Below, piece by piece: positions 6,183 through 40,646 of a DNA stretch of 64,000 nt. The DNA lies in the NCBI GenBank assembly GCA_964634305.1, contig CAZWLE010000004.1, forward strand, positions 35,059 to 99,058, written 5' to 3'. Positions within the stretch are counted from its first letter, which is position 1. Every line of letters starts with the position of its first letter. The DNA is from an uncultured Candidatus Saccharibacteria bacterium (lineage in GTDB: Bacteria > Patescibacteriota > Minisyncoccia > Phycocordibacterales > Phycocordibacteraceae). The position numbers and the translations under genes were made by a program. The notes beneath the pieces were generated by a model. That model was given only the letters and a program-made list of their open reading frames with translations. It was not told where the DNA came from and ran no database searches.

Positions 6183-7145
6183 ATGATTCGCATGCTTCTC
6201 GCACTCCTTTTGGTGCTTGCGCCTGCCACCCTCCACGCACAGGTACTCCCGGGCGTAAGTCCTGTGGTCATTACCCTTTCACCACAGTACCCACGTCCGT
6301 ACGAGACGGTCACGGTAAAGCTCACAAGCACCGTTTTCAGCCTTCCTGCGAGCACGGTCACTATCTACGCCAACGGTGCGGTTATCGGAGAGAACACCTC
6401 TACTGCAACCTTCCAGGCAGGAGCAGCGGGAAGTCGAACCACTATACGCGCAGTTGTATCTAACAGTGACGGCACAAACGAAGCCTCAGTCTCGGTAGTA
6501 CCTACTGATATTGCACTCATCGTTGAGCCAACCGCTACCGCGCACGCCTTCTATGACGGAGGGGTCCTCCCCGCACCCGAAGGGCAGGTACGAGTCGTCG
6601 CGCTCGCAGACTTCCGCTCAGGAGGCACAAGTATTGCTCCTTCAAATCTCATCTACACGTGGAAGCTCGGTGATAAGGAGCTCGCTGCAGAATCCGGGGC
6701 AGGGAAGAATGTACTGACGGCGACTGGCCCTACTCGCTATCGCGACGCCACGGTAAGTGTGCGGGTCGCGACGCGTGACGGCTCTATCGTTGGCTCGGCG
6801 AGTGTCGTTGTGGCTCCAGTGAATCCGCTGGTGCGTATCTACCGCAATGACCCTCTTCTTGGTATCGATTTTGCTAACGCGCTCTCTGGTACCTTCACGC
6901 TTCCCGGTACCGAGGAAGCATTCCGTGCCGTTGGTTACCATTTTGGCACCAACCCAACATTGTCCTGGACCTTAAACGGTACCGACACCGGCACTGACCC
7001 CGACCTCACCCTCCGTACTACGGGTACAGAAGAGGGAACAGCCCTCCTTGGCGTATCTGCTGATGGAAACGGGATATTCTCACATGCTGAGTCCTCGCTT
7101 ACCGTACAATTTGGAAGAGCATCAAACGCCTTATTTGGCTTCTAA
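6183..7145 (+). CDS. Secreted Thr/Ser/Gly-rich beta-rich protein with a signal peptide
   Basis: The N-terminus MIRMLLALLLVLAPATLHAQ is a signal peptide. The 320-aa protein is low in charged residues and rich in T/S/G/V. Confidence 0.45.
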   Translation: MIRMLLALLLVLAPATLHAQVLPGVSPVVITLSPQYPRPYETVTVKLTSTVFSLPASTVTIYANGAVIGENTSTATFQAGAAGSRTTIRAVVSNSDGTNEASVSVVPTDIALIVEPTATAHAFYDGGVLPAPEGQVRVVALADFRSGGTSIAPSNLIYTWKLGDKELAAESGAGKNVLTATGPTRYRDATVSVRVATRDGSIVGSASVVVAPVNPLVRIYRNDPLLGIDFANALSGTFTLPGTEEAFRAVGYHFGTNPTLSWTLNGTDTGTDPDLTLRTTGTEEGTALLGVSADGNGIFSHAESSLTVQFGRASNALFGF

Positions 7146-10001: not shown

Positions 10002-10316
10002 CTAATGATGGGGGCGATTGAGTAGAGATTCAAGCTCGGCCTTGAGAACACCGTAGGGAAGCCCGAGACTTCCCGCACGTGCGTAGGCAATAATGGAGCG
10101 ACCAGGGGTGAGATAGGGGCGTAGGACAGCGAGCATCCGGCGCTTCAAGAGGTGTCGGTCGACCGAGCGACGGGCTACCTTCTTAGACACTACGGCAGCT
10201 GCCCCTCCTTCACGGGCAGGGACAGCAACAATAGAGAAATGGGCTGAGGATGCCCTCATACCGCTCCGGGTGTCCGGAAACCGAGCCCGGGAAAGGCGGC
10301 TCCGGCGGGGCAGCAT
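10002..10316 (-). CDS. rnpA: Ribonuclease P protein component
   Basis: It is a basic small protein (RLSRARF...VVSKKVARRSVDRHLLKRRM) located between rpmH and yidC. The true start may instead be the internal Met at about 10259. Confidence 0.6.
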   Translation of the reverse strand: MLPRRSRLSRARFPDTRSGMRASSAHFSIVAVPAREGGAAAVVSKKVARRSVDRHLLKRRMLAVLRPYLTPGRSIIAYARAGSLGLPYGVLKAELESLLNRPHH

Positions 10317-10323
10317 GCCTAAT

Positions 10324-10476
10324 TTACGCCTTACGGCTCTTGACGGTCAGCGCGGCGCGTCCTTTTCTGCGGCGACGGGTAAGAACGTTCTTCCCGGTAG
10401 GGGTTTTGCTGCGAGAAAGGAAGCCGTGGGCGCGAGCGCGCTTTCGTTTCTTCGGCTGGTACGTGCGTTTTGGCAT
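10324..10476 (-). CDS. rpmH: 50S ribosomal protein L34, missing from the ORF track because it is under 60 aa
   Basis: The reverse-strand translation is [50 protein letters not shown]-stop, a near-canonical L34 sequence. Confidence 0.85.
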
Positions 10477-10585
10477 GAAGTCGAGTGATAAATGCTATCC
10501 ACAGGATACTAACATGTTCTCCACGCCGAGCAAGAAAATAGGCCAGTTTTTAGTTATCCACAGTGGCGCGTATACTACTCCCACG
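10477..10585. promoter_or_regulatory. dnaA upstream region carrying DnaA boxes (oriC/dnaA promoter candidate)
   Basis: A perfect TTATCCACA lies at 10554-10562. CTATCCACA (one mismatch) lies at 10495-10503. A weaker TTCTCCACG lies near 10518. All sit between the divergent rpmH and dnaA. Confidence 0.6.
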
Positions 10586-11929
10586 ATGAACAAACAAGAT
10601 CCTCACGAACTTTGGGAACACATACTTTCGCAGGTAGAACTCTCCATATCACCTGCCAATTTCAACACCTGGTTTCGTGAGAGTCATATTGTAAAGATAG
10701 AAGAGGGGATTGTGTACGTAGGTGTACCGAGCCAATTCTTCCGTGATTGGTACCAGAAGAAGTTCCACGCGCTTCTCCTTAAGATTCTCCGCTCGGTCTC
10801 CTACGAGTTCCGTAATATTGAGTACCTCATCGTTAAAGATGCACGTAAGCCAAAGGTAGAGAAGCGTGAGCGCCAGAATCAGGAGTTGCCGCTCGATGAG
10901 TTCTACATAAACAAGAGCGACAACCTTAATCCTCGCTACACGTTCGATACGTTTGTCGTTGGTTCCTTCAACGAACTCGCGTACACCGCTGCTATGGCTG
11001 CTATTAAGCGCCCTGGCATCACATACAACCCACTCTTTGTGTACGGCGACACCGGACGCGGTAAGACGCACCTCATTCAGGCGGTGGGTAATCAATTCAA
11101 GAAACTCTACCCAACGCGTAAGGTCTACTATCTAACGTCAGAGAAGTTTTCCGTCGACTACACCGACTCCATAGGGCAGGGGACGGCGAACCGTTTCAAG
11201 GAGAAGTACCGTCAGTACGATCTCATCATCATGGATGACATCCAGTTCCTCGCCAAGAAGGAGAAGACGCAGGAGGAACTCTTCCACCTCTTCAACCACC
11301 TGCACGACAACAATAAGCAGATTATCTTCTCCTCAGACCGTCCTCCTCAGGCTATTCCTGATATTGCTGACCGTGTACGTGGACGTCTTCTTAGCGGCAT
11401 GACGGTGGATATTTCTGAGCCTGATACCGAGTCTCGTATCGCTATCGTGAAGAAAAAGGCAGCTCAGCACGACGTCATCCTTGCTGATGATGTGGTGGAG
11501 TACGTCGCCACCTCCGTTTCTGGCTCTATTCGAGAGCTTGAAGGCATTATTAACTCACTTGTGTGTCATGCGCAGGTAAAAGGAGTATCTCCAGACCTTG
11601 CAGAGGTACGTCAGTCACTCCGTTCTTTCTCCCGCCCTACTAAATCAGTCTCGGTTAAGCATGTGGTCTCTAAGGTGGCTGAGTTCTACGGTATCGACGA
11701 GGAGAGTATCTACGAGAAGACACGCAGAAGGGAGGTGGTACGCCCACGTCAGGTCATCATGTTCCTTCTTCGTGAGGACTTCTCCGTCTCATATCCGACG
11801 ATAGGATCAAAGCTTGGTGGTCGTGACCACACCACCGTTATTCACTCGTGCGAAAAGGTGCGTCGTGAGATGACGGATGATCTTGAACTTGCAAAAGAGA
11901 TTCAAGATATCCGCGGACTGTTGGTATAG
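10586..11929 (+). CDS. dnaA: Chromosomal replication initiator DnaA
   Basis: The N-terminal domain (LWEHILSQVELSISPANFNTWF) is followed by the AAA+ Walker A (GDTGRGKTHL) and Walker B (DLIIMDDIQF), and a C-terminal DNA-binding domain (HTTVIHSCEKV). Start was taken at ATG 10586 rather than the over-extended track start at 10250. Confidence 0.9.
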   Translation: MNKQDPHELWEHILSQVELSISPANFNTWFRESHIVKIEEGIVYVGVPSQFFRDWYQKKFHALLLKILRSVSYEFRNIEYLIVKDARKPKVEKRERQNQELPLDEFYINKSDNLNPRYTFDTFVVGSFNELAYTAAMAAIKRPGITYNPLFVYGDTGRGKTHLIQAVGNQFKKLYPTRKVYYLTSEKFSVDYTDSIGQGTANRFKEKYRQYDLIIMDDIQFLAKKEKTQEELFHLFNHLHDNNKQIIFSSDRPPQAIPDIADRVRGRLLSGMTVDISEPDTESRIAIVKKKAAQHDVILADDVVEYVATSVSGSIRELEGIINSLVCHAQVKGVSPDLAEVRQSLRSFSRPTKSVSVKHVVSKVAEFYGIDEESIYEKTRRREVVRPRQVIMFLLREDFSVSYPTIGSKLGGRDHTTVIHSCEKVRREMTDDLELAKEIQDIRGLLV

Positions 11930-12132
11930 GTGTGTAAAACCTATGGAAAACTCCCAGGAAACTATGAGGATAATTACTGAGATGATTGGGGATTCTGTTA
12001 GGTTGGGAAAAGGGGTGTTAGTAAGTTCTGTTATTAACAATAGTTTTCAACAGGGTTGTGTAGGTGGTAGGGAGAAAATAACTAAGTATGTAGGCGGTAT
12101 TACTACGTTTTCCACCTATCAACACAACTAAT
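11930..12132. promoter_or_regulatory. AT-rich dnaA-dnaN intergenic region, candidate DNA-unwinding element or second oriC half
   Basis: This ~200 nt stretch is markedly AT-rich compared with its flanks. It contains degenerate box-like TTTTCCACC and TGTGTAAAA. Confidence 0.35.
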
Positions 12133-12141
12133 ATGGGTGGT

Positions 12142-13242
12142 ATGAATATTTCTCTAGAAAAAAAAGAATTAATACAGGCAGTGGGAATTGTTTCTCGTTT
12201 CTCTGAACGAAAGACCTCAACACTTCCTGCACTTGCAGGTATCTCGATACTGGCTGAGAAAGATACCCTTACGTTCTATGCCACTAATCTTGAAACCGGT
12301 ATCAGTCTTAAGGTGCAAGGCTCAGTCCGCACTCCTGGATCTATTGTGCTTCCGGCGAATATTTTCCGAGAGATCACCAACTCCTTCTCAGGTACAGGGA
12401 CAGTTTCTTTAGAGCTTGATGGTGATGTAGTGAAAATAGCAGCAGGAACCGCAAAGACCACTATGAAAACCCTTCCTCAAGAGGATTTTCCAACCCTTCC
12501 TTCTCTTGAGACGTCTAAAATCTCCTTCACTCTCCCTGGTACGCTTCTTAAGAGCCTTATTTCAACGGTAGCGTCGTGCGCATCTCCTTCGACGGTACGT
12601 CCTGAACTTGCCAGTATCTTTATTTCCGCTGAGGGCGGCACGGTAAAGGCGGTAGCTACTGACTCATTCCGTCTTGCAGAGAAGAAAGTATCCGTGAACG
12701 CATCAGTGAAGCCGTTCTCCATGCTTATTCCTGCTAAAAACGCCCTAGATATCGCACAGACGCTTCCTGACGAGGATATTGAGGTAAATGCCGACGAACA
12801 TCAGTGCTCCTTCTCTTGGAAGGGAGGTATGGCTACGACACGTCTTGTGTCTGCACAGTACCCAGACTATGGGCAGATAATTCCAAAAACATTCGCCGCA
12901 GAAGCGACGATTCTCCGAAAAGATTTTGAGACGGCTCTTCGTCGGGCCTCTGTCTTCTCTGACGCGTTCCAAAAGGTTCGTGTGGGACTTGATGCAGGAA
13001 AGAAGCAAGTCACGCTCTCATCGCGAAATTCTGACGTTGGAGAGTCCTTAGAGAGTATTCCTGCATCAATATCAGGAGAAGTAATAGAGCTGCCGTTTAA
13101 TCATCGTTATCTTGGTGCACCACTCTCTCTTATTGGCGCCGAGAGTATCTCGCTCTCTGCTGCAGGTATCGGTCGTCCATTAGTTATGCGTGGTCAGGGT
13201 GATACGTCCTTCTTGTATCTGGTAATGCCGATGAATCAATAG
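12142..13242 (+). CDS. dnaN: DNA polymerase III beta sliding clamp
   Basis: The ~366 aa length and three-domain beta-clamp pattern fit DnaN. The gene lies directly after dnaA. The track start at 12133 is an alternative. Confidence 0.85.
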   Translation: MNISLEKKELIQAVGIVSRFSERKTSTLPALAGISILAEKDTLTFYATNLETGISLKVQGSVRTPGSIVLPANIFREITNSFSGTGTVSLELDGDVVKIAAGTAKTTMKTLPQEDFPTLPSLETSKISFTLPGTLLKSLISTVASCASPSTVRPELASIFISAEGGTVKAVATDSFRLAEKKVSVNASVKPFSMLIPAKNALDIAQTLPDEDIEVNADEHQCSFSWKGGMATTRLVSAQYPDYGQIIPKTFAAEATILRKDFETALRRASVFSDAFQKVRVGLDAGKKQVTLSSRNSDVGESLESIPASISGEVIELPFNHRYLGAPLSLIGAESISLSAAGIGRPLVMRGQGDTSFLYLVMPMNQ

Positions 13243-13244
13243 TT

Positions 13245-14282
13245 TTGATGATTAACTCAAAAACATTATTTATAGTTGGTGCTGGAGCAAGTCAGGAGGT
13301 GAAATTTCCAGCAGGGGATACTTTTAAAAAAGAAATAACCAGACGGTTAGATATCCAATATGAACATGGTTTCGAGAGAACCTCTGGTGATGAAAGGATA
13401 GACGAAGCCTTTAGAAGATTAGTAAGAGAGAAGAATCCCCAAAACCAAGACATAAACCCGTATCTAAAAGCATCTCGGAAGATAAGAGACGCTCTGCCTC
13501 AAGCGTTATCTATAGATAATGTTTTGGATGCTCATGCGGAAGACGATGAGGTCCAGCTAGCAGGAAAGCTTGGAGTTGCCCAGACAATTCTAGAGGCAGA
13601 GAGAAAAAGTTCCCTGTTCTGTGGATTTGGAGAGAAGATAAACCAGTCGAATCTTTTGGATACTTGGTATGTTCAGCTTTCTAAGCTACTTACAGAGAAT
13701 GTAAGAAAAGGAGATATTGGAGAAATCTTCGATAACGTTTCTTTCATAACTTTTAATTACGACAGATGTATCGAGCAATATCTTCCCCATGCTCTTGCGA
13801 ATTATTATTCAATCTCCTTAGAGGAGGCACGGGCGATAGTCTCCACTTTGGTGATTAAACATCCTTATGGGCAGGTCGGTAGATTAAGCGCAGAAAATCC
13901 AAGAGACATGGTCCTTTTTGGAGAAACTGAGAGGGTTGATTTAATCGCTATTTCCTCTCAGATAAAAACTTTTACACAACAAGAAGCAAACCCAGCTAAC
14001 CTGGAAGATATAAAATCATTAGTAAGAGAAGCTGAAACGATAGTGTTTTTAGGGTTTGGTTTCCATAGGATGAATATGGAGCTACTCGACCCTCAGACGT
14101 CCACAAAAGTTAAGAGAGTATTCGGTACCGCTAGAGGCATTTCAAACATGGATTGTGAAGTGGTCAAAGACGACATCATGTCCATCCTTCACCCAGAGAC
14201 TACAATTCCTAAAATCGTGATTGATAACACCTTGTCCTGTTATGGGCTTTTCGAAACACACTGGAGAAGTCTCTCTCGTTAA
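13245..14282 (+). CDS. SIR2-like (SIR2_2 / ThsA-like) domain protein with a presumed NAD+-binding or NADase fold, standalone, 345 aa
   Basis: The motifs are FIVGAGASQE (GAGxS), ITFNYDRCIEQ (the TTNYD motif), IKHPYGQ (the xHG region) and IVFLGFGFHRMN (the FVGFSF-D motif). Order and spacing match ThsA N-domain-type SIR2. The gene is visibly AT-rich relative to dnaN and the PBP gene. Confidence 0.55.
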   Translation: MMINSKTLFIVGAGASQEVKFPAGDTFKKEITRRLDIQYEHGFERTSGDERIDEAFRRLVREKNPQNQDINPYLKASRKIRDALPQALSIDNVLDAHAEDDEVQLAGKLGVAQTILEAERKSSLFCGFGEKINQSNLLDTWYVQLSKLLTENVRKGDIGEIFDNVSFITFNYDRCIEQYLPHALANYYSISLEEARAIVSTLVIKHPYGQVGRLSAENPRDMVLFGETERVDLIAISSQIKTFTQQEANPANLEDIKSLVREAETIVFLGFGFHRMNMELLDPQTSTKVKRVFGTARGISNMDCEVVKDDIMSILHPETTIPKIVIDNTLSCYGLFETHWRSLSR

Positions 14283-32385: not shown

Positions 32386-33468
32386 ATGACCGCTCTTTCG
32401 CGCGTTCTTCGCGTCGAATTTCCACCACCCTCATATCTTGCGCCTGCAACGGCAGGTATCGATATCTCCACGAGTGGTATCAAGATTGCAAAACTCGTTG
32501 AAAAAGCACACGGCCTTGAGCTCGCTGATTATGCAGAGCTTCCCCTTCCGACCGGTACGGTCGTTGATGGTGAGATTCGTGACCCTGCAGCGGTAGTGCA
32601 AGGGTTGAAAGAACTCGCCGCAAAGCATCACCTTAAAGTCGCGAGCATCGCACTCCCAGAATCCCGAGGCTATCTCTTTGAAGCGGAAGCTGAGGGTGCC
32701 TCCATGGACGAGGCGAAAGTCGCTATCGAGCGCCGCCTCGATGAATATGTGCCACTTCCTGCAAATGATGTCGCGTTTGCGATTGCACCGCTCCCTAAAA
32801 AGGACGCGACACAGCATGTGGTGGGGGTAGGGTACGCGCGTCGTGTCGTTGACGATTCTCTTGCTGCACTCGATGAAGCGGGGATACGTGCACGTGCGAT
32901 TGAAAGTGAGACCTTTGCACTGCCCCGTGCACTTCTCCCACACGGAAACAACGAGACGGTACTCATTATTGATATCGGTAAGACAACGACGAAACTCTTA
33001 GTGGCCACGAGTCGTCTGCCACGATACGTCACCACGCTTGATATTGGTGGTCACGCACTCACGCTTGCCGTAGAGAAACACTTTGGGGTGTCAGAAGAAG
33101 AAGCAAAGCGTGTGAAAGCAGAGCGCGGTATCGTGCCTGGTTCTGGTAACGAAGAGTATCTTGCGGCGATGCTTTCAACCGTGTCGGTGATACGCGATGA
33201 AATCGCCAAGCGTCTTGAGTACTGGCAGTCGCGTCCTGAGACCACCGCCGGAAACGATGCTGTAACGCGCGCGATACTTGTTGGTGGTAATGCAACGGTA
33301 CTTGGTCTTCCTGAGTATTTGCAGACGTCATTGAAAGTCCCCGTAGAACTTGGGGATGTGTTTGCTAACTTTGCGCCGCGTGAGATATGGCTTCCACCGC
33401 TTGAGTACACCGAGTCACTCGCGTACGGCACGGCGATAGGCCTCGCGCTTCGAGACTATGTCAACTGA
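32386..33468 (+). CDS. pilM: Type IV pilus assembly protein PilM (actin-like ATPase fold)
   Basis: The ORF is 360 aa with the GIDISTSGIKIAKL N-terminal motif and the FtsA/PilM fold pattern. pilN/pilO-like genes follow. Confidence 0.7.
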   Translation: MTALSRVLRVEFPPPSYLAPATAGIDISTSGIKIAKLVEKAHGLELADYAELPLPTGTVVDGEIRDPAAVVQGLKELAAKHHLKVASIALPESRGYLFEAEAEGASMDEAKVAIERRLDEYVPLPANDVAFAIAPLPKKDATQHVVGVGYARRVVDDSLAALDEAGIRARAIESETFALPRALLPHGNNETVLIIDIGKTTTKLLVATSRLPRYVTTLDIGGHALTLAVEKHFGVSEEEAKRVKAERGIVPGSGNEEYLAAMLSTVSVIRDEIAKRLEYWQSRPETTAGNDAVTRAILVGGNATVLGLPEYLQTSLKVPVELGDVFANFAPREIWLPPLEYTESLAYGTAIGLALRDYVN

Positions 33469-34009: not shown

Positions 34010-34521
34010 ACACGTCTTTCATACATCTAGGCATTGCTGCACTAGTACTCGTGCTTGCTGCGGGCGGGTACGCACTTGGCTTTCACATGGTGTCTGAAGC
34101 AAAGGCGGAAGCTACGACGCTTGCAGGAGAAATAGCGGCTAAAGAAGCAGCGCAGGCACGCGGCGCAGGCGCACGCGCACGCTTGCTTGAGGTGGCGTCA
34201 GACGAAACATTCCTCGCGTCGCACTTTGTCGCCACTGCTGACATCGTGTCGTTTCTTGAGGACCTTGAAGGTGCAGGAGATGCGTTTGGGGCAGTAGTAT
34301 CTGTCGCGTCAGTATCAGGAGACGAAGCGAATCAGGGAGGACGCATCACGCTCTCGCTTTCTATTCGTGGTTCATTCGATGCGGTCATGCGTACACTTGG
34401 GGTGCTTGAACACGGACGCTATGTTCTCTCGTCTCGCGACTTGGTGTGGAGCGGTGGCGCAGAAGGAGAGTGGGCGGTGACCGGCACGTTCGTTGCAGAA
34501 ACTAAAACCACTACACCATGA
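34006..34521 (+). CDS. pilO: PilO-like bitopic membrane protein
   Basis: It has one N-terminal TM (IAALVLVLAAGGYALGF) followed by a coiled-coil region. It overlaps the pilN end by 4 nt. Confidence 0.45.
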   Translation: MNTSFIHLGIAALVLVLAAGGYALGFHMVSEAKAEATTLAGEIAAKEAAQARGAGARARLLEVASDETFLASHFVATADIVSFLEDLEGAGDAFGAVVSVASVSGDEANQGGRITLSLSIRGSFDAVMRTLGVLEHGRYVLSSRDLVWSGGAEGEWAVTGTFVAETKTTTP

Positions 34522-34823
34522 CCTTGCCTCCAGCCCTACAAAAGATTTTGAAGAAACTGCGGCTTGGCGGCCACAGCGGACACGCTGACCCGGCACGTGA
34601 CTGGGCACTCCTTCTCTCTCTTGCACTCGTAGTCATCATTGCAAGCGTTGCGTGGAATGTGTGGTTCTTCTTTGAAGTATTGAACGCGCAGCCAGTCGTT
34701 GAAGCGCCTGCGACCGAGGAAGAAACAGATACGGTGGCGCCCCTACGAACACTCTTCGAAGAGCGAGCAGCAGAGGAAGCCCGCTATCGAAACGAGTATC
34801 GTTTCGTTGACCCGGGCAACTAA
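34518..34823 (+). CDS. Small membrane protein, last gene of the pilMNO cluster
   Basis: The ORF is 101 aa with one TM (LLLSLALVVIIASVAWNVWFFF). It overlaps pilO by 4 nt. Confidence 0.35.
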   Translation: MTLPPALQKILKKLRLGGHSGHADPARDWALLLSLALVVIIASVAWNVWFFFEVLNAQPVVEAPATEEETDTVAPLRTLFEERAAEEARYRNEYRFVDPGN

Positions 34824-34841
34824 GGCGGATAGGCTACAGGG

Positions 34842-34913
34842 GCCTCCATAGCTCAATGGATAGAGCTGCGGACTTCTAAGCCGTCGATGTTGGTTCGATT
34901 CCAGCTGGAGGCA
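34842..34913 (+). tRNA. tRNA-Arg (anticodon TCT)
   Basis: The fold has acceptor GCCTCCA/TGGAGGC, D-arm GCTCAATGGATAGAGC, anticodon loop CTTCTAA (as in argU-type tRNAs) and T-loop TTCGATT. One mismatch sits at the anticodon stem closing pair. Confidence 0.65.
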
Positions 34914-34928
34914 CAAGCAGAGATGAAT

Positions 34929-35013
34929 GGGCATGTGGCGGAATTGGTATACGCGTACGTCTCAGAAGCGTATGGAGCAATCCTTGGAGGTTCGAGTCCT
35001 CTCATGCCCACCA
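34929..35013 (+). tRNA. tRNA-Leu (anticodon CAG) with encoded CCA
   Basis: The fold has acceptor GGGCATG/CATGCCC, anticodon loop CTCAGAA, long variable arm and T-loop TTCGAGT. Confidence 0.8.
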
Positions 35014-35018
35014 GATAG

Positions 35019-35047
35019 AAAAACCGAATGTTCTGCGTTCGGTTTTT
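35019..35047. terminator. Rho-independent terminator after the tRNA-Arg/tRNA-Leu pair
   Basis: The structure is AAAAACCGAA-TGTTCTGCG-TTCGGTTTTT. Confidence 0.6.
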
Positions 35048-35053
35048 CTATAC

Positions 35054-36895
35054 ATGACGCGCTTCTCTCGTATTAGCCGATGCTACACTCTCTGTATGAG
35101 TGAGCGGTACGAAGCGCCGAAGAGTAGAAGTGAATACAAAGAGCCCGCTGGTTTCTATGACTATGCGACGCAAACTGCGCGCATCCGCACTGAGTTGCTG
35201 TGGAAACAAATTCAACTAGCAGCGGCAAAAGCACCTCTTGCATACGACAAGATGATAGATAGAGGTGCACTTACCAAAAACCAACTTGAGAGTGCCGAAC
35301 ATAATCTTCTTCGAAATGCGAAGAAGCCTGATGGGTATATCACTCCTCGGGATGTTGCGAAGAGAGAACGGATTGCTGGATATGTTGATGCCAGGGATGC
35401 GCGTGTGGGAACTGATAAGACCCGAGAACTTTCAGCGTATCTTCGTTCAACTGCTGAGCTCTATAGAGCAAACGTAGACCATCTTGCGAAAGATTTCGAC
35501 CATACGCTCGTCATCCCTACCGTGCTTACGGAAGTAGAACAACAAGTTGATAGAGCGTTTCTGCCACAAGAGCTCGAAGCATCTAAAACTCTCAGGGCAT
35601 TTGTTAGCGAGTTTAAGGATAAGATGGCCAAGTCACGTGCTCAGTTTGCATCGGTCATTGCTGCATATCCCACCGATATGCGCTCTTCGGAATATGACGA
35701 TAAGAAGAAAGAGACGCAAATAATGCGAGACAGCAAACGGTCAAAGGCCATGCTGACTTCAATCTCATCTTTGTCTAAAGAAATGCAGGGAGTAGATACC
35801 ATATACGAAGACATTATTACTCGCCTCAGTGCTGCAGAGACAAAGGCGCGCAAGAAACCGCAACCTTCTGAAGAAACCGTGCCACTCTCTGCACAGACAC
35901 GTGCAGCATCGGGCGCGCTTGATGCTCTTCCGGATGCGGAAGTACGCTCACTTACTCGTTTTAAAAATCTGTTGCAACAGGAGCGGATTAATAATATCCG
36001 TCAGTACGCCATTACGTACAAAGAACTGATTCGAGCATTCGAAACACACATCAAGACTGGCAAGAAACTGCGCGCGGCAGAAATACATCTTGGCAGAATG
36101 TTAGCGGTCCGTACGGGTCTGCATGCCCAGAGAGAATCAAAGCGGGACAAGATAGGTGAACTTATGCAAGTCGAAGGTGCGTGGTTGAGTCAGAAAGCAA
36201 ATCAGCGCAATGGGCAGGATGATTTTGTTGGTGCATATCTAGGAAACCTGAATGGCCATACTCCTCCCGTTGAAAAAGCGAACAATGGGTGGAGCTTAGG
36301 TTTAGAAGAAATAGGAAAGCGACCAGAAAATGACATCGTTGACATAGTGATGGGCATGCGAAATCGCGCGTTGCTTCCAGAAGACCTAGTTGAGGAAGGG
36401 GAAGAACCAGTTGAATCTGATGAAGATATAGAAACGGCTGAACCGACGCTGGAGGTAATAGATACGCCAACAGAGCCAAAACGTCCACAACCACCCGTCA
36501 AACAGAATGAGCCTATACCGGTAGAACTGGCGCCTATAGTCGCTGAATCAGCCAAGGAAGAATCGAAACCTAAGGTTCTAGTTCCGAAACCAGCAGAGAA
36601 AAAGAAAGGAAACAAAGAAAAAACAGCTAATCTAGAGAAGAAACGAAAGATACTGCGAGGAGTAATAGGGAAACTAAAGGAAGAAAAACTTCCCAAGCCA
36701 AGATCTAGAAATTCATGGGCTGAGGTTGTTAACGCTTTCAAAAAGGAAAAATTGCCTGAAGAAGCGATGCAAGCGGTACAAGAATATATCAATAGTCAGG
36801 AAGCTCTTCGACAAGGACTTAACATCAAATTTGGTCCAAACGGTCGTAAGTTTCTCATTGATGTATTAGAACAGGTCGAGCAAACGCTCGTATAG
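35054..36895 (+). CDS. Large hypothetical, highly charged (Lys/Glu-rich) alpha-helical protein on a lower-GC, tRNA-flanked segment
   Basis: The 613-aa ORF has no recognisable catalytic motif and a KKxK-rich C-terminus. The segment is visibly lower in GC than its neighbours. It is bounded by tRNA-Leu(CAG) on the left and a perfect hairpin plus tRNA-Val on the right. Confidence 0.5.
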   Translation: MTRFSRISRCYTLCMSERYEAPKSRSEYKEPAGFYDYATQTARIRTELLWKQIQLAAAKAPLAYDKMIDRGALTKNQLESAEHNLLRNAKKPDGYITPRDVAKRERIAGYVDARDARVGTDKTRELSAYLRSTAELYRANVDHLAKDFDHTLVIPTVLTEVEQQVDRAFLPQELEASKTLRAFVSEFKDKMAKSRAQFASVIAAYPTDMRSSEYDDKKKETQIMRDSKRSKAMLTSISSLSKEMQGVDTIYEDIITRLSAAETKARKKPQPSEETVPLSAQTRAASGALDALPDAEVRSLTRFKNLLQQERINNIRQYAITYKELIRAFETHIKTGKKLRAAEIHLGRMLAVRTGLHAQRESKRDKIGELMQVEGAWLSQKANQRNGQDDFVGAYLGNLNGHTPPVEKANNGWSLGLEEIGKRPENDIVDIVMGMRNRALLPEDLVEEGEEPVESDEDIETAEPTLEVIDTPTEPKRPQPPVKQNEPIPVELAPIVAESAKEESKPKVLVPKPAEKKKGNKEKTANLEKKRKILRGVIGKLKEEKLPKPRSRNSWAEVVNAFKKEKLPEEAMQAVQEYINSQEALRQGLNIKFGPNGRKFLIDVLEQVEQTLV

Positions 36896-36912
36896 CCAGA
36901 TAGTGATTTGAA

Positions 36913-36950
36913 AACAGAACCCAGACACGAGTGTCTGGGTTCTGTTGTTT
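36913..36950. terminator. Strong rho-independent terminator, a 16-bp perfect stem
   Basis: The structure is AACAGAACCCAGACAC-GAG-GTGTCTGGGTTCTGTT followed by GTTT. Confidence 0.65.
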
Positions 36951-37025
36951 GGTGCGCGCTGAGGGACTCGAACCCCCGACCATCCCGGTGTAAACGGGGT
37001 GCTCTACCAACTGAGCTAAGCGCGC
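36950..37025 (-). tRNA. tRNA-Val (anticodon TAC) with encoded CCA
   Basis: The reverse complement is GCGCGCTTAGCTCAGTTGGTAGAGCACCCCGTTTACACCGGGATGGTCGGGGGTTCGAGTCCCTCAGCGCGCACCA. Confidence 0.8.
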
Positions 37026-37055
37026 GTAGAGAGACCATACCGCAAACACGGTATA

Positions 37056-37337
37056 GTGAAAAGTATGGAGCGTCTCGAAGCCTCGGTCTCGGGAAGGGTG
37101 CAGGTAGTCATGTATAGGGACTTTACCTGTCGCAATGCCCGGGCACTTGGCCTTGTGGGGACCGTCAAAAACGAGAAAGACGGGACGGTGACGGTCGTAG
37201 CAGAGGGGGATCGCTCGAAACTCGACGAGTTGGCGCTTCGGCTCTGGAAGGGACCGCTGCTAGCGAAGGTCGATATGGTGAAAACATCTTTCTCATCTGC
37301 AACAGGTGAGTTTGAGAAATTTCGTATCGTCTATTGA
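37056..37337 (+). CDS. acyP: Acylphosphatase
   Basis: VSGRVQVVMYRDF is the V-GxVQGV-FR motif. GTVKNEKDGTVTVVAEG is the G-V-N-DG-V motif. The ORF is 93 aa. Confidence 0.75.
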   Translation: MKSMERLEASVSGRVQVVMYRDFTCRNARALGLVGTVKNEKDGTVTVVAEGDRSKLDELALRLWKGPLLAKVDMVKTSFSSATGEFEKFRIVY

Positions 37338-37368
37338 GCCGTAGCGGCATACAAGGTACGGTACGCAC

Positions 37369-38112
37369 ATGGAACTCCCCATCATCTATGAAGACGACGA
37401 CATCGTCGCGGTTGATAAGCCCGCGGGCGTCATGGTGCATGCGGATGGTCGTTCAACAGAAGAGACCGCAAGCGATTGGTTTGCAGCACACTACCCAGCG
37501 AGCGCTGAGGTAGGGGAGACGCAGCGGTTGCAGGACGGCACTGAGGTGAAGCGTCCCGGCGTGGTGCATCGACTCGACCGAGATACGTCGGGGGTGCTCG
37601 TGTTTGCGAAGACACAGGAAGCCCATGCATTTTTGAAAGCAGCCTTTCAGGCGCGAGAGGCACACAAAACCTACTTGGCGTTTGTGTATGGCACGCTGAC
37701 AGAACCGAAAGGCGTTATTGAATTTTCAATCGGACGTTCACGTAAGGATTTCCGCCTCCGTTCCGCTCAGCCAAAAGCAAAAGGGACGCTCCGTGAAGCC
37801 ATTACTCGCTATGAGGTGCTCGCTGAGGATAAGGAAGGGAAGTACACCCTTCTTAAGGTAATGCCGGAGACAGGACGCACGCATCAGATACGCGTTCACT
37901 TGAAGGCGATTCATCATCCCGTGGTCGCAGACCCGCTCTACGCTCCAGGCCGAGACAACACCCTGCGGCTCCCGCACCTCGCGCTTCACGCCTTCCGGCT
38001 CGATATCCCGCTGCCGTCAGGAGAGCGGAAAACCCTAGAGGCGCCCTTCCCAGAGGACCTCGCCCCGGGCCTCGCGGCGTTCCCGGACCCCGGCATCGTT
38101 GCCTCCCTGTAG
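37369..38112 (+). CDS. RluA-family pseudouridine synthase
   Basis: The catalytic motif is HRLDRDTSGVLVFAKT. The C-terminus carries GRTHQIRVH. Confidence 0.8.
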   Translation: MELPIIYEDDDIVAVDKPAGVMVHADGRSTEETASDWFAAHYPASAEVGETQRLQDGTEVKRPGVVHRLDRDTSGVLVFAKTQEAHAFLKAAFQAREAHKTYLAFVYGTLTEPKGVIEFSIGRSRKDFRLRSAQPKAKGTLREAITRYEVLAEDKEGKYTLLKVMPETGRTHQIRVHLKAIHHPVVADPLYAPGRDNTLRLPHLALHAFRLDIPLPSGERKTLEAPFPEDLAPGLAAFPDPGIVASL

Positions 38113-38139: not shown

Positions 38140-38661
38140 ATGGCAGGCATCATCACTCCGGTTAAGACGGAAGAGCGCACCAAACTCGGCATTCGCCCGG
38201 GTGACACCGTGCGTGTTCACCAGAAGATTGTTGAAAAGGGTAAGACGCGTACCCAGGTATTCGAGGGTCTCGTCATTGCAACCAAGCACGGTAACGAGGC
38301 AGGTGCTTCCTTCACCGTCCGCGCCAACATGTCAGGCATCGGTGTCGAGCGTATCTTCCCGCTCTTCGCTCCATTCATCGAGAAGATTGAGATTGTGAAG
38401 CGTTCTAAGGTTCGCCGCGCAAAGCTCTACTTCATCCGTGAGAAGGTGGCTCGTGAGGTTCGCCGCCAGCTCCGCAACATGCGCATGATGAACACTTCTA
38501 CAGATGATTTCATCGAGAAGGAGACCTCAGTCGCTGATGCTGAAATCGACGCAGATGTCGCAGCAGTTGAAGCTGACATTGAAGAGGCAGTTGCTGCAGC
38601 AGAAGCATCCGTTGCTGAAGAGGGCGGGGAAGTGAAGGAAGAAGAGAAGGCGACCGCGTAA
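38140..38661 (+). CDS. rplS: 50S ribosomal protein L19 with an acidic Ala/Glu-rich C-terminal extension
   Basis: The L19 core is GDTVRVHQKIVEKGKTRTQVFEGLVIA...RRAKLYFIRE. A ~50-aa acidic tail follows. Confidence 0.85.
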   Translation: MAGIITPVKTEERTKLGIRPGDTVRVHQKIVEKGKTRTQVFEGLVIATKHGNEAGASFTVRANMSGIGVERIFPLFAPFIEKIEIVKRSKVRRAKLYFIREKVAREVRRQLRNMRMMNTSTDDFIEKETSVADAEIDADVAAVEADIEEAVAAAEASVAEEGGEVKEEEKATA

Positions 38662-38672
38662 GTTTGTGTAAA

Positions 38673-38710
38673 AGAAGCCGGCCCGCTATAGTAGGCGGGC
38701 CGGCTTCTTT
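38673..38710 (+). terminator. Strong rho-independent terminator after rplS
   Basis: The structure is AAGAAGCCGGCCCGC-TATAGTA-GGCGGGCCGGCTTCTTT. Confidence 0.65.
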
Positions 38711-38728
38711 ATAAGGCCAGCAGTACCT

Positions 38729-38810
38729 GCCCAGGTGGTGAAATTGGTATACACGTATCCTTGAGGTGGATATGCCGCAAGGTGTGGAGGTTCGAGTCCT
38801 CTCCTGGGCA
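38729..38810 (+). tRNA. tRNA-Leu (anticodon GAG), long variable arm
   Basis: The fold has acceptor GCCCAGG/CCTGGGC, anticodon stem-loop TATCC-TTGAGGT-GGATA and T-loop TTCGAGT. Confidence 0.8.
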
Positions 38811-38816
38811 CAGAAA

Positions 38817-38850
38817 AAGAAAAACCAGAGTATGCTCTGGTTTTTCTTTT
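38817..38850 (+). terminator. Rho-independent terminator after tRNA-Leu(GAG)
   Basis: The structure is AAAACCAGAG-TATG-CTCTGGTTTT followed by TCTTTT. Confidence 0.6.
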
Positions 38851-38899
38851 GCACTCTTATCCTCTTTTTCATACTGACTTCATCTGCGACTATAGGCAC

Positions 38900-39097
38900 A
38901 TGAAGCAGCGTCTCCTTAAATCTGCCGCCGTGTCGCTTGAGTGGCGTCTCATTGCGTTCATCATTACCGAGCTCTTTTTCTGGGCGACGACCGGTCACTT
39001 CTGGCAGGCAACGATTCTTGCGGTACAACTCCAGCTTATCCTTCTCGTTGCTCATTTTGGTTGGTTTTTTGTGCGCGAAACGAAAACGCAGCAATAG
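38900..39097 (+). CDS. Small hypothetical membrane protein
   Basis: The ORF is 65 aa from the internal Met (MKQRLLK) with two hydrophobic helices. Confidence 0.3.
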   Translation: MKQRLLKSAAVSLEWRLIAFIITELFFWATTGHFWQATILAVQLQLILLVAHFGWFFVRETKTQQ

Positions 39098-39154
39098 CAC
39101 CACCTCGTTGCTCGTGGTATAAGTGCGAAACGTAGCGGGTTTCGCTACAGACAT

Positions 39155-39228
39155 GGCGGCCTTAGCTCAGCTGGTAGAGCTCTGGTTTGTGGTACCAGCG
39201 GTCGCGGGTTCGAGCCCCGCAGGTCGCC
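39155..39228 (+). tRNA. tRNA-His (anticodon GTG) with genome-encoded G-1
   Basis: G at 39155 precedes acceptor GCGGCCT/AGGTCGC. The discriminator C can pair with G-1. The anticodon stem-loop is CTGGT-TTGTGGT-ACCAG and the T-loop is TTCGAGC. Confidence 0.85.
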
Positions 39229-39235
39229 CCGAAAG

Positions 39236-39260
39236 TAAAAACGCCGGAAGGCGTTTTTGC
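39236..39260 (+). terminator. Rho-independent terminator after tRNA-His
   Basis: The structure is AAAAACGCC-GGAA-GGCGTTTTT. Confidence 0.55.
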
Positions 39261-39313
39261 GTTTACTTATCACCCGTGCTTTTATACGCCTCCACCAGAA
39301 CGAGAGGTTACAC

Positions 39314-39538
39314 ATGACCGAACAGGACTGGGAAGAGCTCTATGCTGCGGCCGAGTGGAGCGAGTACATGCGTGCCGTCTTCAAGAAGGTTCGTGAGGCC
39401 GGGTCGCAAGGTGTAGTCCTGGACCATCAGGTATTTCTGAAAGCAGCGCAGATTCTTCGCTTAAGCGAATTTCCGTTCGAGCTGGTTAAGAAACCACGCC
39501 TTCTTGGTGTTGAACGCTGTATCATCAAACGGAAATAG
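39314..39538 (+). CDS. Small hypothetical protein
   Basis: The ORF is 74 aa from the internal Met MTEQDWEELY. A GGGAGG...CCTCCC hairpin follows at about 39553-39580. Confidence 0.3.
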   Translation: MTEQDWEELYAAAEWSEYMRAVFKKVREAGSQGVVLDHQVFLKAAQILRLSEFPFELVKKPRLLGVERCIIKRK

Positions 39539-39598
39539 CGGCGAGAGCGAGAAACGGGAGGCTCCGAAAGGACCCTCCCGTTTTGCTATACTCCCCGC

Positions 39599-39976
39599 AT
39601 GGCTACCTTCATAGATGAATTCAAAGCATTCGCACTCCGCGGTAATGCGCTCGACCTCGCCATTGGTGTGGTCATTGGTGCTGCATTTAATAGCATCGTG
39701 AACTCGCTCGTCGCGGACATCATGACGCCACCCCTGTCTCTTCTCACTGGTGGCATTAACTTCGCTGACCTCGCTATTCCCGTAGGGACGACCGATGCGG
39801 TCATTCGCTACGGTCTGTTTATTCAGTCGATGATAAGTTTCCTTATCACAGCATTCGCACTCTTCCTTCTCGTTCGCTTCATCCACAAGTTTATACATTC
39901 AACGCCACCGCCTGCAGCGGTCAAACCAGCGGAGCTTCTTGTGTTGGAAGAGATTCGCGATTCGTTGAAGAAATAA
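39599..39976 (+). CDS. mscL: Large-conductance mechanosensitive channel MscL
   Basis: The N-terminus MATFIDEFKAFALRGNALDLAIGVVIGAAFNSIVNSLVADIMTP is the canonical MscL start. Confidence 0.85.
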   Translation: MATFIDEFKAFALRGNALDLAIGVVIGAAFNSIVNSLVADIMTPPLSLLTGGINFADLAIPVGTTDAVIRYGLFIQSMISFLITAFALFLLVRFIHKFIHSTPPPAAVKPAELLVLEEIRDSLKK

Positions 39977-39986
39977 TCTGTCATCT

Positions 39987-40646
39987 ATGAAATCACTCAT
40001 TGCCGGTATCGTCGTTATTCTCCTTATTGGTATTGGTGGGTTCGTGTACCGCAACGTAAAGGAGCGCACCGGACAGCCAGAACCTATGGCCTGCACCATG
40101 GAGGCGAAAGTATGTCCCGACGGTTCGTCAGTGGGAAGACAGGGACCAGCGTGTGAATTTGCTGCGTGTCCGCCACCAAACGTTGAAGTAGCGGAAGCAG
40201 GTGTCGCGTTTGCGCTCCCCGACGGATACGTGGCTGACGAAAATGCGTATGGCGCTGATGTGACGGTACTCGGTGCGTTCACCAAGTCATCGCTCTCCGG
40301 GAATCCTCCACACACTATTATCGTTCGCCGCTACCCAATCGCAGCAGGGAAGACCGCCAACGAAACGATTATTGAAAACACGCGGTTCTCACCATCAGAC
40401 CTTCCGGCTGATTCCATGGATGACTTCAAGCCACTCTTCGTGAACGGTAAGACGTTCCAGTCAGTGGTGATTGAGCGCTTCGAGGCGCAGGTACACAGTG
40501 CGTACTACCTTGCACGCCCAACTGATGTTCTTCGCTTTGAAGTCATCGAACATGATGTAACGGAGTGGATGAACCCAGACCTTGTTGTTGCCGACCTTCC
40601 GCAGCACAAGGCGCTCCTTGAGATGCTTGCAACGCTTCAGCCATAG
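39987..40646 (+). CDS. Secreted or membrane-anchored hypothetical protein
   Basis: An N-terminal TM/signal is present (LIAGIVVILLIGIGGFVY). Two Cys pairs lie near the N-terminus. Confidence 0.4.
   Translation: MKSLIAGIVVILLIGIGGFVYRNVKERTGQPEPMACTMEAKVCPDGSSVGRQGPACEFAACPPPNVEVAEAGVAFALPDGYVADENAYGADVTVLGAFTKSSLSGNPPHTIIVRRYPIAAGKTANETIIENTRFSPSDLPADSMDDFKPLFVNGKTFQSVVIERFEAQVHSAYYLARPTDVLRFEVIEHDVTEWMNPDLVVADLPQHKALLEMLATLQP

Follow-up and report, generated by a model that had tools for sequence, protein, structure and literature searches.

The window analysed in this work, a 64,000-nucleotide stretch of contig CAZWLE010000004.1, contains between its tRNA-Arg(TCT) and tRNA-Leu(CAG) genes on one side and its tRNA-Val(TAC) gene on the other a single protein-coding gene whose product matches no other known protein and which is referred to here as the orphan gene (Table 1). 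The original prediction for this locus, made from the letters of the sequence, had described a lone open reading frame (ORF) of 613 amino acids (aa) in this position, and our analyses bear this out, since besides the orphan ORF no sizeable ORF other than shadow ORFs on other frames is present in positions 35014-36949. The perfect 16-bp hairpin that it had placed before tRNA-Val is likewise present and is probably a bidirectional terminator. The statement that tRNA-Arg and tRNA-Leu each possess a terminator required correction, as one hairpin is found for the tRNA pair and none in the 14-nt gap that separates the two genes. The comparisons described below indicate that the orphan gene is probably an accessory single-gene cassette, horizontally acquired, which resides in an integrase-less hotspot of gene turnover within a conserved tRNA cluster, the source genome being that of an uncultured member of the Parcubacteria/Paceibacterota.

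Table 1. Positions of the orphan gene, its predicted parts and the flanking tRNA genes and hairpins in the window.
Feature	Position	Strand	Remarks
tRNA-Arg(TCT), left anchor of the slot	34842-34914	+	ARAGORN and Rfam
tRNA-Leu(CAG)	34929-35013	+	ARAGORN and Rfam; 14 nt 3' of tRNA-Arg
Post-Leu hairpin	35015-35051	no strand	14-bp stem, A-tract left and T-tract right (ATAGAAAAACCGAA...TTCGGTTTTTCTAT)
Putative inserted cassette, ~1.9 kb	35052-36949	+	promoter, ORF and own hairpin
Longest ORF, 613 aa	35054-36895	+	from upstream in-frame ATG
Extended -10-like box TGcTACACT	35081-35089	+	6 nt upstream of ATG 35096; putative function
Orphan gene from preferred start, 599 aa	35096-36895	+	
N-terminal region, aa 1-385 (599-aa numbering)	35096-36250	+	
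Acidic Pro-rich segment, aa 426-500	36371-36595	+	predicted disordered
Lys-rich basic helix, aa 501-535	36596-36700	+	predicted
C-terminal helical domain, aa 536-599	36701-36892	+	predicted
16-bp perfect hairpin	36913-36946	no strand	AACAGAACCCAGACAC/GTGTCTGGGTTCTGTT; between orphan gene and convergent tRNA-Val
tRNA-Val(TAC), right anchor of the slot	36950-37025	-	ARAGORN and Rfam

Loci related to the window were gathered with two probes, viz. ribosomal protein L19 (one genome per GTDB species) and PilM (Joint Genome Institute (JGI) metagenomes), yielding a total of 107 related loci. All of these loci belong to the Patescibacteria (Parcubacteria/Paceibacterota, Kaiserbacteria-like), and the closest of them exhibit 80% identity to the window in PilM and 90-92% in L19, while the PilM scan of the metagenomes revealed no relative above 72%. 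In the window, the genes upstream of the interval under study, hereafter the slot, encode PilM (32386-33468), two PilN/PilO-like membrane proteins and a 101-aa membrane protein (p101), and those downstream encode an acylphosphatase (acyP, 37056-37337), an RluA-type pseudouridine synthase (37369-38112) and ribosomal protein L19 (38140-38661). The order pilM-pilN-pilO-p101-tRNA-Arg(TCT)-[tRNA-Leu(CAG)]-[slot]-tRNA-Val(TAC)-[acyP]-...-rluA-L19 is conserved in dozens of the related loci, and the orientation of the backbone genes is also retained on both sides of the slot. The genes of the pil operon are closely spaced, as are rluA and L19 (median gaps of 5-93 bp), and the distance from p101 to acyP ranges from 267 to 3356 bp.

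The size of the slot, taken as the non-tRNA DNA from tRNA-Arg to tRNA-Val, could be defined in 67 of the loci, in all of which (67/67) tRNA-Arg follows the p101 gene. The slot is empty (<200 bp) in 24 of these loci, measures 200-700 bp in 20, and is at least 700 bp long in the remaining 23, with a maximum of 5.2 kb. Hence, the slot itself is conserved and its content is variable, and an all-versus-all BLASTP comparison showed the cargo proteins to be mutually unrelated, except for one family of three members (from loci L004, L005 and L015). The longest slot, of 5.2 kb (L029:3637-9032), encodes a large serine recombinase (Resolvase, Recombinase and Zn_ribbon_recom domains), a 377-aa unidentified protein and an ABC-type ATPase, and it is the only slot with a recognizable mobility gene among those scanned against Pfam. 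Other slots encode a GHKL ATPase and a helix-turn-helix protein (L072), an SPFH protein (L046) or a PIF1 helicase (L079), and in several the cargo consists of highly charged proteins of 400-725 aa that lack any domain and are encoded on one strand or the other. A class I ribonucleotide reductase, nrdAB, consisting of a large subunit with an ATP-cone and a small subunit, occupies the slot of L068 (5024-8884), showing that a metabolic gene pair also occurs as slot cargo. Even the nearest relatives differ from one another: L004 and L005 (pilM 80%) possess a slot gene of 411-417 aa on the opposite strand, the slot of L002 (pilM 74%) is empty, and L009 (pilM 73%) carries a different gene of 556 aa. 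The orphan cassette is absent from all 107 related loci.

The structure of the empty sites suggests how the cassette could have been inserted. In these sites the convergent tRNA-Leu and tRNA-Val genes are 38-63 bp apart and the spacer consists of a single A-tract/stem/T-tract hairpin of the post-Leu type, as exemplified by L036 and L075. The spacer of L036 (AAGAAAAGACCGAATGCTTGGCATTCGGTTTTTTCTTTG) is nearly identical to the post-Leu hairpin of the window (GATAGAAAAACCGAATGTTCTGCGTTCGGTTTTTCTATAC), and the latter would thus represent an ancestral bidirectional terminator that was once shared by both tRNA genes. The ancestral state would have been a compact cluster with this one terminator between tRNA-Leu and tRNA-Val, and the ~1.9 kb of the cassette would have been inserted between the terminator and tRNA-Val, bringing with it a promoter, an ORF and the second hairpin. 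The cassette is intact. No integrase or transposase is present in the segment, as its only ORF has no recombinase match in Pfam, NCBIfam or PHROG, and a repeat search of positions 34500-37400 found no direct repeats matching the ends of tRNA-Leu or tRNA-Val, but only short imperfect families at chance level; the absence of both had been noted before and is confirmed here. The DNA would probably have entered through recombination in conserved flanking sequences, and not through a site-specific integration event, from a donor of lower GC content using the same promoter grammar, i.e., another Patescibacterium or a poorly sampled mobile element of one, and different genomes of the lineage would have gained different cargo in the same tRNA interval. 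The proposal that the gene is acquired cargo flanked by tRNA genes thus finds support in the comparison of related loci. The gene is not, however, bounded by tRNA genes in the classical sense of integration at a tRNA 3' end, but lies inside a conserved tRNA cluster.

A number of observations indicate that the orphan ORF is a real gene. Its codon log-likelihood ratio is +0.09 in the annotated frame and at most -0.29 in each of the other five frames, its GC content at first codon positions (GC1) exceeds that at second positions (GC2) as in real genes, and by our estimate chance alone would practically never yield an open frame of 599-613 codons in DNA of 46% GC (~1e-13). The start codon could be refined from a feature of the window as a whole. 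A TAnnnT box is found 5-8 nt 5' of the start codon in 13 of 50 window genes, compared to 4.7% of background ATGs (p = 4e-7), often with TGn in front to give TGnTAnnnT; examples include the starts at 6183, 16481-, 21133-, 26771-, 32386, 59822 and 62659. A Shine-Dalgarno-like motif is rare (7/50 window genes), and this pattern suggests that leaderless mRNAs may be widespread in the source genome. The first ATG of the orphan ORF (35054) lies 3 nt past the post-Leu hairpin and has no TAnnnT box, and the second (35096) is preceded by the arrangement TGcTACACT-N6-ATG. Because this genome-typical box is found there and the protein record derived from NCBI (P0001, 599 aa) begins at the same codon, ATG 35096 is the likely true start. 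A scan of the region for consensus sigma-70 promoters found none, and the three terminator-like hits that it returned, all within the ORF and on its minus strand, do not exceed chance expectation.

As judged by its sequence, the orphan protein is a true singleton ORFan. A word-indexed search of 5.8 billion clusters and an exhaustive phmmer scan of 1.84 billion cluster representatives both returned only the protein itself, and its cluster has one member. No trace of it was detected by tblastn or phmmer in the 107 related loci, and no relative was found in phage and plasmid collections (tblastn) or in a scan of IMG/VR. The earlier statement that the protein has no recognizable domain also holds, as searches of Pfam, NCBIfam, PDB sequences, PHROGs and PADLOC all lacked a significant match. 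The Pfam matches are sub-threshold (Retrotrans_gag, E = 0.19; PIN_8, E = 0.3), as is a PHROG match (E = 0.032) to a family of minor tail proteins, the best match among PDB sequences has E = 0.44, and no family of the PADLOC anti-phage defence models was found at E <= 1. A MafI family immunity protein (NF033691, NCBIfam) was considered and rejected, its score of 20 bits comparing with a cut-off of 31 and deriving from a 31-residue helical stretch, with none passing alone.

The 599-aa protein has a mass of 67.7 kDa, an isoelectric point of 8.95 and no Cys. It contains no transmembrane segment (maximum Kyte-Doolittle value 0.72) and no signal peptide is seen in its N-terminal sequence; together with the lack of a secretion-related context, this does not favour the earlier suggestion of an effector. 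Long helices are predicted at low model confidence for the mildly basic region of aa 1-385. An acidic, Pro-rich segment (aa 426-470) of net charge -12 that is predicted to be disordered and a further Pro-rich segment (aa 471-500) precede the Lys-rich helix, which contains 12 Lys and has a net charge of +9. The KKxK-rich segment near the C-terminus that had been pointed out previously (AEKKKGNKEKTANLEKKRKILRG) is present and lies mostly inside this helix, beginning one residue upstream of it (base 36593). The full-length single-sequence AlphaFold2 (AF2) model is poor, with a mean predicted local distance difference test (pLDDT) score of 45; the last ~100 residues, viz. the Lys-rich helix and aa 536-599, are modelled as a four-helix unit with a pLDDT of 70 (about 70-88) and a predicted template modelling (pTM) score of 0.56. 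A canonical coiled-coil or a scaffold of repeat modules was considered and rejected, as neither heptad periodicity nor internal repeats are significant: the peak power of hydrophobic periodicity at a period of 3.5 was matched by 26 of 300 shuffles, and the best of 10 comparisons between segments (z = 2.8) was equalled by 8 of 300 shuffles. From these properties we infer a soluble, cytoplasmic, non-enzymatic protein of modular helical build. Our best guess, which is of low confidence because its basis is limited to the charge layout and weak single-sequence models, is that the protein serves in binding or as a scaffold and that a polyanion, e.g. nucleic acid, might be engaged by its Lys-rich helix and C-terminal domain.

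The lower GC content reported earlier for the segment was borne out by calculation. The GC content of the orphan gene is 0.462, compared to 0.532 +/- 0.031 for the 49 other long ORFs of the window (z = -2.3), and at third codon positions (GC3) the values are 0.402 and 0.547 +/- 0.071 (z = -2.0), with GC1 and GC2 lying less than one standard deviation from the other ORFs. From the amino acids of the orphan protein and the synonymous codon preferences of the window a GC content of 0.519 would be expected; the observed value of 0.462 means that the deficit is synonymous and not a by-product of richness in Lys and Glu, and amino acid content accounts for just ~0.013 of the 0.07 deficit. The description of the protein as very rich in Lys, Glu and Arg proved to be right in direction but overstated, its combined Lys, Arg, Glu and Asp (K+R+E+D) fraction being only moderately raised (0.32 compared to 0.23 +/- 0.06; z = 1.7) and close to those of L19 and PolA from the same window. 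In raw tetranucleotide distance the 2-kb segment 35001-37000 ranks sixth of ~125 (z = 2.6), and higher values are found only around 10.5-15 kb. Neither a uniform composition nor conservation of the gene in the same position with normal codon usage was thus observed.

We favour the interpretation of the orphan gene as acquired cargo because the flanks of the slot are conserved, 24 of the 67 slots are empty and those of other genomes contain unrelated genes, and this comparative evidence is stronger than the compositional evidence. Several observations weigh against this interpretation. Normalization for base composition leaves a modest tetranucleotide deviation for 35001-37000 (z = 1.8; correlation z = -0.9), and the core gene dnaN has an equally low GC3 (0.408), as do a few other genes. 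Low GC3 alone is therefore no proof of foreign origin here, and composition by itself is weak evidence for it. No donor has been identified, and the related genomes, of which the closest has 80% PilM identity, include no conspecific one. The route through flank recombination is unproven: an incongruence of the tRNA genes was seen, but control tRNAs have little phylogenetic signal. The tRNA-Leu and tRNA-Val of the window are closest to genomes at only 60-67% PilM identity, being 94-99% identical to the copies of L073 and L075 (PilM 64-65%) and just 87% identical to those of L004 and L005. How similar the slot tRNAs are to the window copies is uncorrelated with PilM identity (rho 0.04-0.13), and control tRNAs from elsewhere in the loci also track the backbone poorly, with a weak to moderate correlation (rho 0.07-0.52), so the pattern could be due to tRNA genes having been exchanged or could be just noise. 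The functional proposal, which we hold with low confidence, draws on charge layout and on models with a mean pLDDT of 45 for the whole protein and 70 for its C-terminal part, and when the C-terminal model was compared with PDB and BFVD by Foldseek, nothing but generic helical bundles emerged (best E-values of 1.3 and 0.7).

The orphan gene could alternatively be an ancient and very fast-evolving resident of a slot that at first contained a single charged helical protein, which would make the orphan protein and the 532-aa slot protein of L006 highly diverged positional orthologues that were lost or replaced in many lineages. The L006 protein occupies the same position in the same orientation (tRNA-Leu+ -> ORF+ -> tRNA-Val-), has a similar layout of a helical N-terminal region followed by a Lys-rich stretch and a C-terminal helical domain, and is itself nearly an orphan; a 91% near-copy of it exists (P0002). 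The two proteins are collinear over the last ~100 aa of the orphan protein with 26% identity, and the motif W-E-FK-E-LP-E-Y is present in both, the hydrophobic spacing in the basic helix agrees and the terminal helix is alike. The full-length score gave p ~0.01 against local-composition shuffles, a tail-versus-tail Smith-Waterman score, for a comparison picked post hoc, was reached by 2 of 5000 shuffles, the HMMER domain p-value is 0.0012 and pairwise BLASTP gives E = 0.003; in addition, many slot proteins are as highly charged as the orphan protein (K+R+E+D of 0.32-0.35). However, after correction for ~43 comparisons this likeness is marginal, the N-terminal ~400 aa cannot be aligned and the L006 host genome is distant (pilM 61%). 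Moreover, phmmer at E<10 among 15,195 ORFs of the related loci did not report the L006 match, and a joint C-terminal profile of the two proteins recovered no further member from the same ORFs; a database search with this profile was empty and missed its own seeds too, and hence it is uninformative. The slot genes of the nearest relatives also speak against long residence of the orphan gene. A Smith-Waterman z of 3.4 and a look-alike motif 'G[KR]RP...D[VI][DE]' had hinted at a link to their opposite-strand family (L004/L005/L015), but this link was rejected (hhalign probability 0.1; hidden Markov model score on the orphan protein -0.7 bits, equalled by 23% of shuffled decoys), and in another near relative the slot is empty. 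The neighbouring p101, which also evolves fast, is still 28-53% identical across the same genomes, and the GC3 deficit argues in the same direction. Overall, we regard long residence as rather unlikely. A bolder version, in which the orphan and L006 proteins are survivors of a hyper-variable family (Lys-rich helix plus conserved C-terminal four-helix domain) that in Paceibacteria resides in the slot immediately downstream of the type IV pilus operon (pilMNO) and was diversified by an arms race, would if true imply a role in, e.g., episymbiont-host or phage interaction or the handling of pilus-imported DNA, and would make the tRNA cluster a dedicated, integrase-independent site for the capture and exchange of such genes, but we consider it very improbable.

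It may also be asked whether the cassette is what remains of an integrative element or prophage for which the tRNA genes were formerly the target of integration and whose integrase and att sites have since eroded. The adjacency of tRNA genes, the large serine recombinase and further cargo in the L029 copy of the slot and the weak PHROG match to a minor tail protein family are in keeping with such an origin. On the other hand, the segment lacks any integrase, transposase or att-like repeat, searches of phage and plasmid collections, IMG/VR and BFVD gave no match to the orphan protein, and the cassette is compact and intact: its one ORF, with promoter and terminator, leaves ~40 nt of non-coding DNA at one end and ~55 nt at the other, and remnants of pseudogenes are absent. 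A GC3 that has not been ameliorated does not fit an old insertion either, and we judge this explanation to be distinctly unlikely; the earlier suggestion of an old, degraded insertion is similarly at odds with an intact promoter, 599-codon ORF and hairpin and with a GC3 still far from that of other genes. Lastly, the gene might not be genuinely foreign at all but an ORF that is spurious or arose de novo, or else a chimera of metagenome assembly, with the GC dip being local variation driven by Lys and Glu codons. Singleton ORFs of metagenome-assembled genomes are frequently artefacts, tRNA genes are classic chimera junctions, a composition rich in Lys and Glu favours A-rich codons, and dnaN matches the orphan gene in GC3. 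This explanation is nevertheless exceedingly improbable in view of the length of the frame, its frame-specific codon signal and GC1/GC2 pattern, the small share of the GC deficit that is due to amino acids and the presence of a promoter and terminator, and because conserved synteny continues on both flanks, two independent chimeric joins would be required.

The acquired-cargo interpretation places the slot among known phenomena. Fewer than half of the hotspots of horizontal gene transfer (HGT) encode an integrase and many have no recognizable mobile elements, tRNA or tmRNA genes occur in 29% of them, and their conserved flanks have been proposed as the place of recombination (Oliveira, Touchon, Cury & Rocha 2017, PMC5635113). 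The present slot resembles these hotspots in being a fixed interval between conserved genes with unrelated accessory genes in different genomes and empty states, in the absence of an integrase or mobile-element gene from the slot of the source genome, in the tRNA genes at the site, and in the functions encoded in the slots of relatives (recombinase, helicase, ATPase, nucleotide metabolism). It differs in that the published definition applies within species pangenomes (PMC5635113), whereas species, genera and families of an uncultured clade of the candidate phyla radiation (CPR) are compared here, and in that flank recombination at this slot is inferred only. With classical tRNA-linked islands and prophages the cassette shares its tRNA adjacency, a GC content below that of the host and a sporadic distribution among relatives, but unlike the islands that depend on a tyrosine integrase it has neither an integrase nor a duplicated tRNA 3' end or att repeat, and it is just 1.9 kb long with a single gene, lying between two tRNA genes beside a terminator hairpin. 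In its lack of homologues and domains, its hydrophilic and helical nature and its origin from a small, streamlined genome with an abundance of hypothetical proteins, the orphan resembles other CPR ORFans; its length of 599 aa is unusual for a singleton, and its clear modular layout and own expression signals also set it apart. The sequence is new, but there is no sign of a new kind of system, and an accessory ORFan in a hotspot is an already known phenomenon, i.e., an ordinary accessory-gene insertion.

CPR organisms have tiny genomes, and how they gain genes is little understood. In the uncultured CPR lineage studied here, the locus provides a clean and well-delimited case of a conserved tRNA cluster at which genes turn over, and with its empty sites and varied cargo the slot is a possible natural marker locus for horizontal transfer in Paceibacteria. 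A lineage-wide tRNA-cluster hotspot next to a pilus operon is neat, yet it will not surprise the specialist. The orphan protein adds one more long, expressed-looking entry to the CPR 'dark matter' and raises no specific biological question by itself.

Some further features of the locus and the window were noted during this work. The tRNA-Leu(CAG) gene, which many related loci have in the slot, is lacking from the Arg-Val cluster in many others (L012, L024, L033, L037, L038, L052, L054, L056, L057, L060, L062 and others), tRNA-Val is on the opposite strand in L034, L058, L068, L073, L076 and L080, and tRNA-Leu is on the opposite strand in L019 and L079; these differences indicate that the tRNA cluster itself has been rearranged over time. 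Downstream of the slot, a gene for an UppS-type cis-prenyltransferase separates acyP from rluA in most relatives (median gap 704 bp; e.g. L060:8532-9215), and L004 (7522-9203) has a polyprenyl synthase there as well. In the window the acyP-rluA gap is 31 bp (37337-37369), and tblastn found no uppS anywhere in the 64 kb. Ribosomal protein L19 of the window carries an acidic, Ala/Glu-rich C-terminal extension of ~60 residues (173 aa compared to a 111-position Pfam domain); the length of this tail differs among relatives, and the L19 match often ends at residue ~124. A second variable interval lies nearby between L19 and p219 (38661-39987), measuring 1329 bp in the window, where it holds tRNA-Leu(GAG) and tRNA-His, and 811-5609 bp in 65 relatives.

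The most deviant part of the window in composition is 10250-14282 (GC 0.40-0.47), which comprises dnaA (10250-11929), dnaN (12133-13242) and a 345-aa gene (13245-14282). The latter has the lowest GC content of the window (0.403), and its only match is a weak one to SIR2_2 (E = 2.7e-4, below the cut-off); lying next to the genes of the replication origin, it may represent a defence gene of the SIR2 type that was acquired. With regard to the public records of the related loci, many of the syntenic ones (L001, L005-L009, L011, L013 and others) are titled 'uncultured Candidatus Saccharibacteria' and L034 is titled Bacillota. The same backbone occurs in loci titled Paceibacterota or Kaiserbacteria, and the Saccharibacteria and Bacillota titles are probably taxonomic mislabels.

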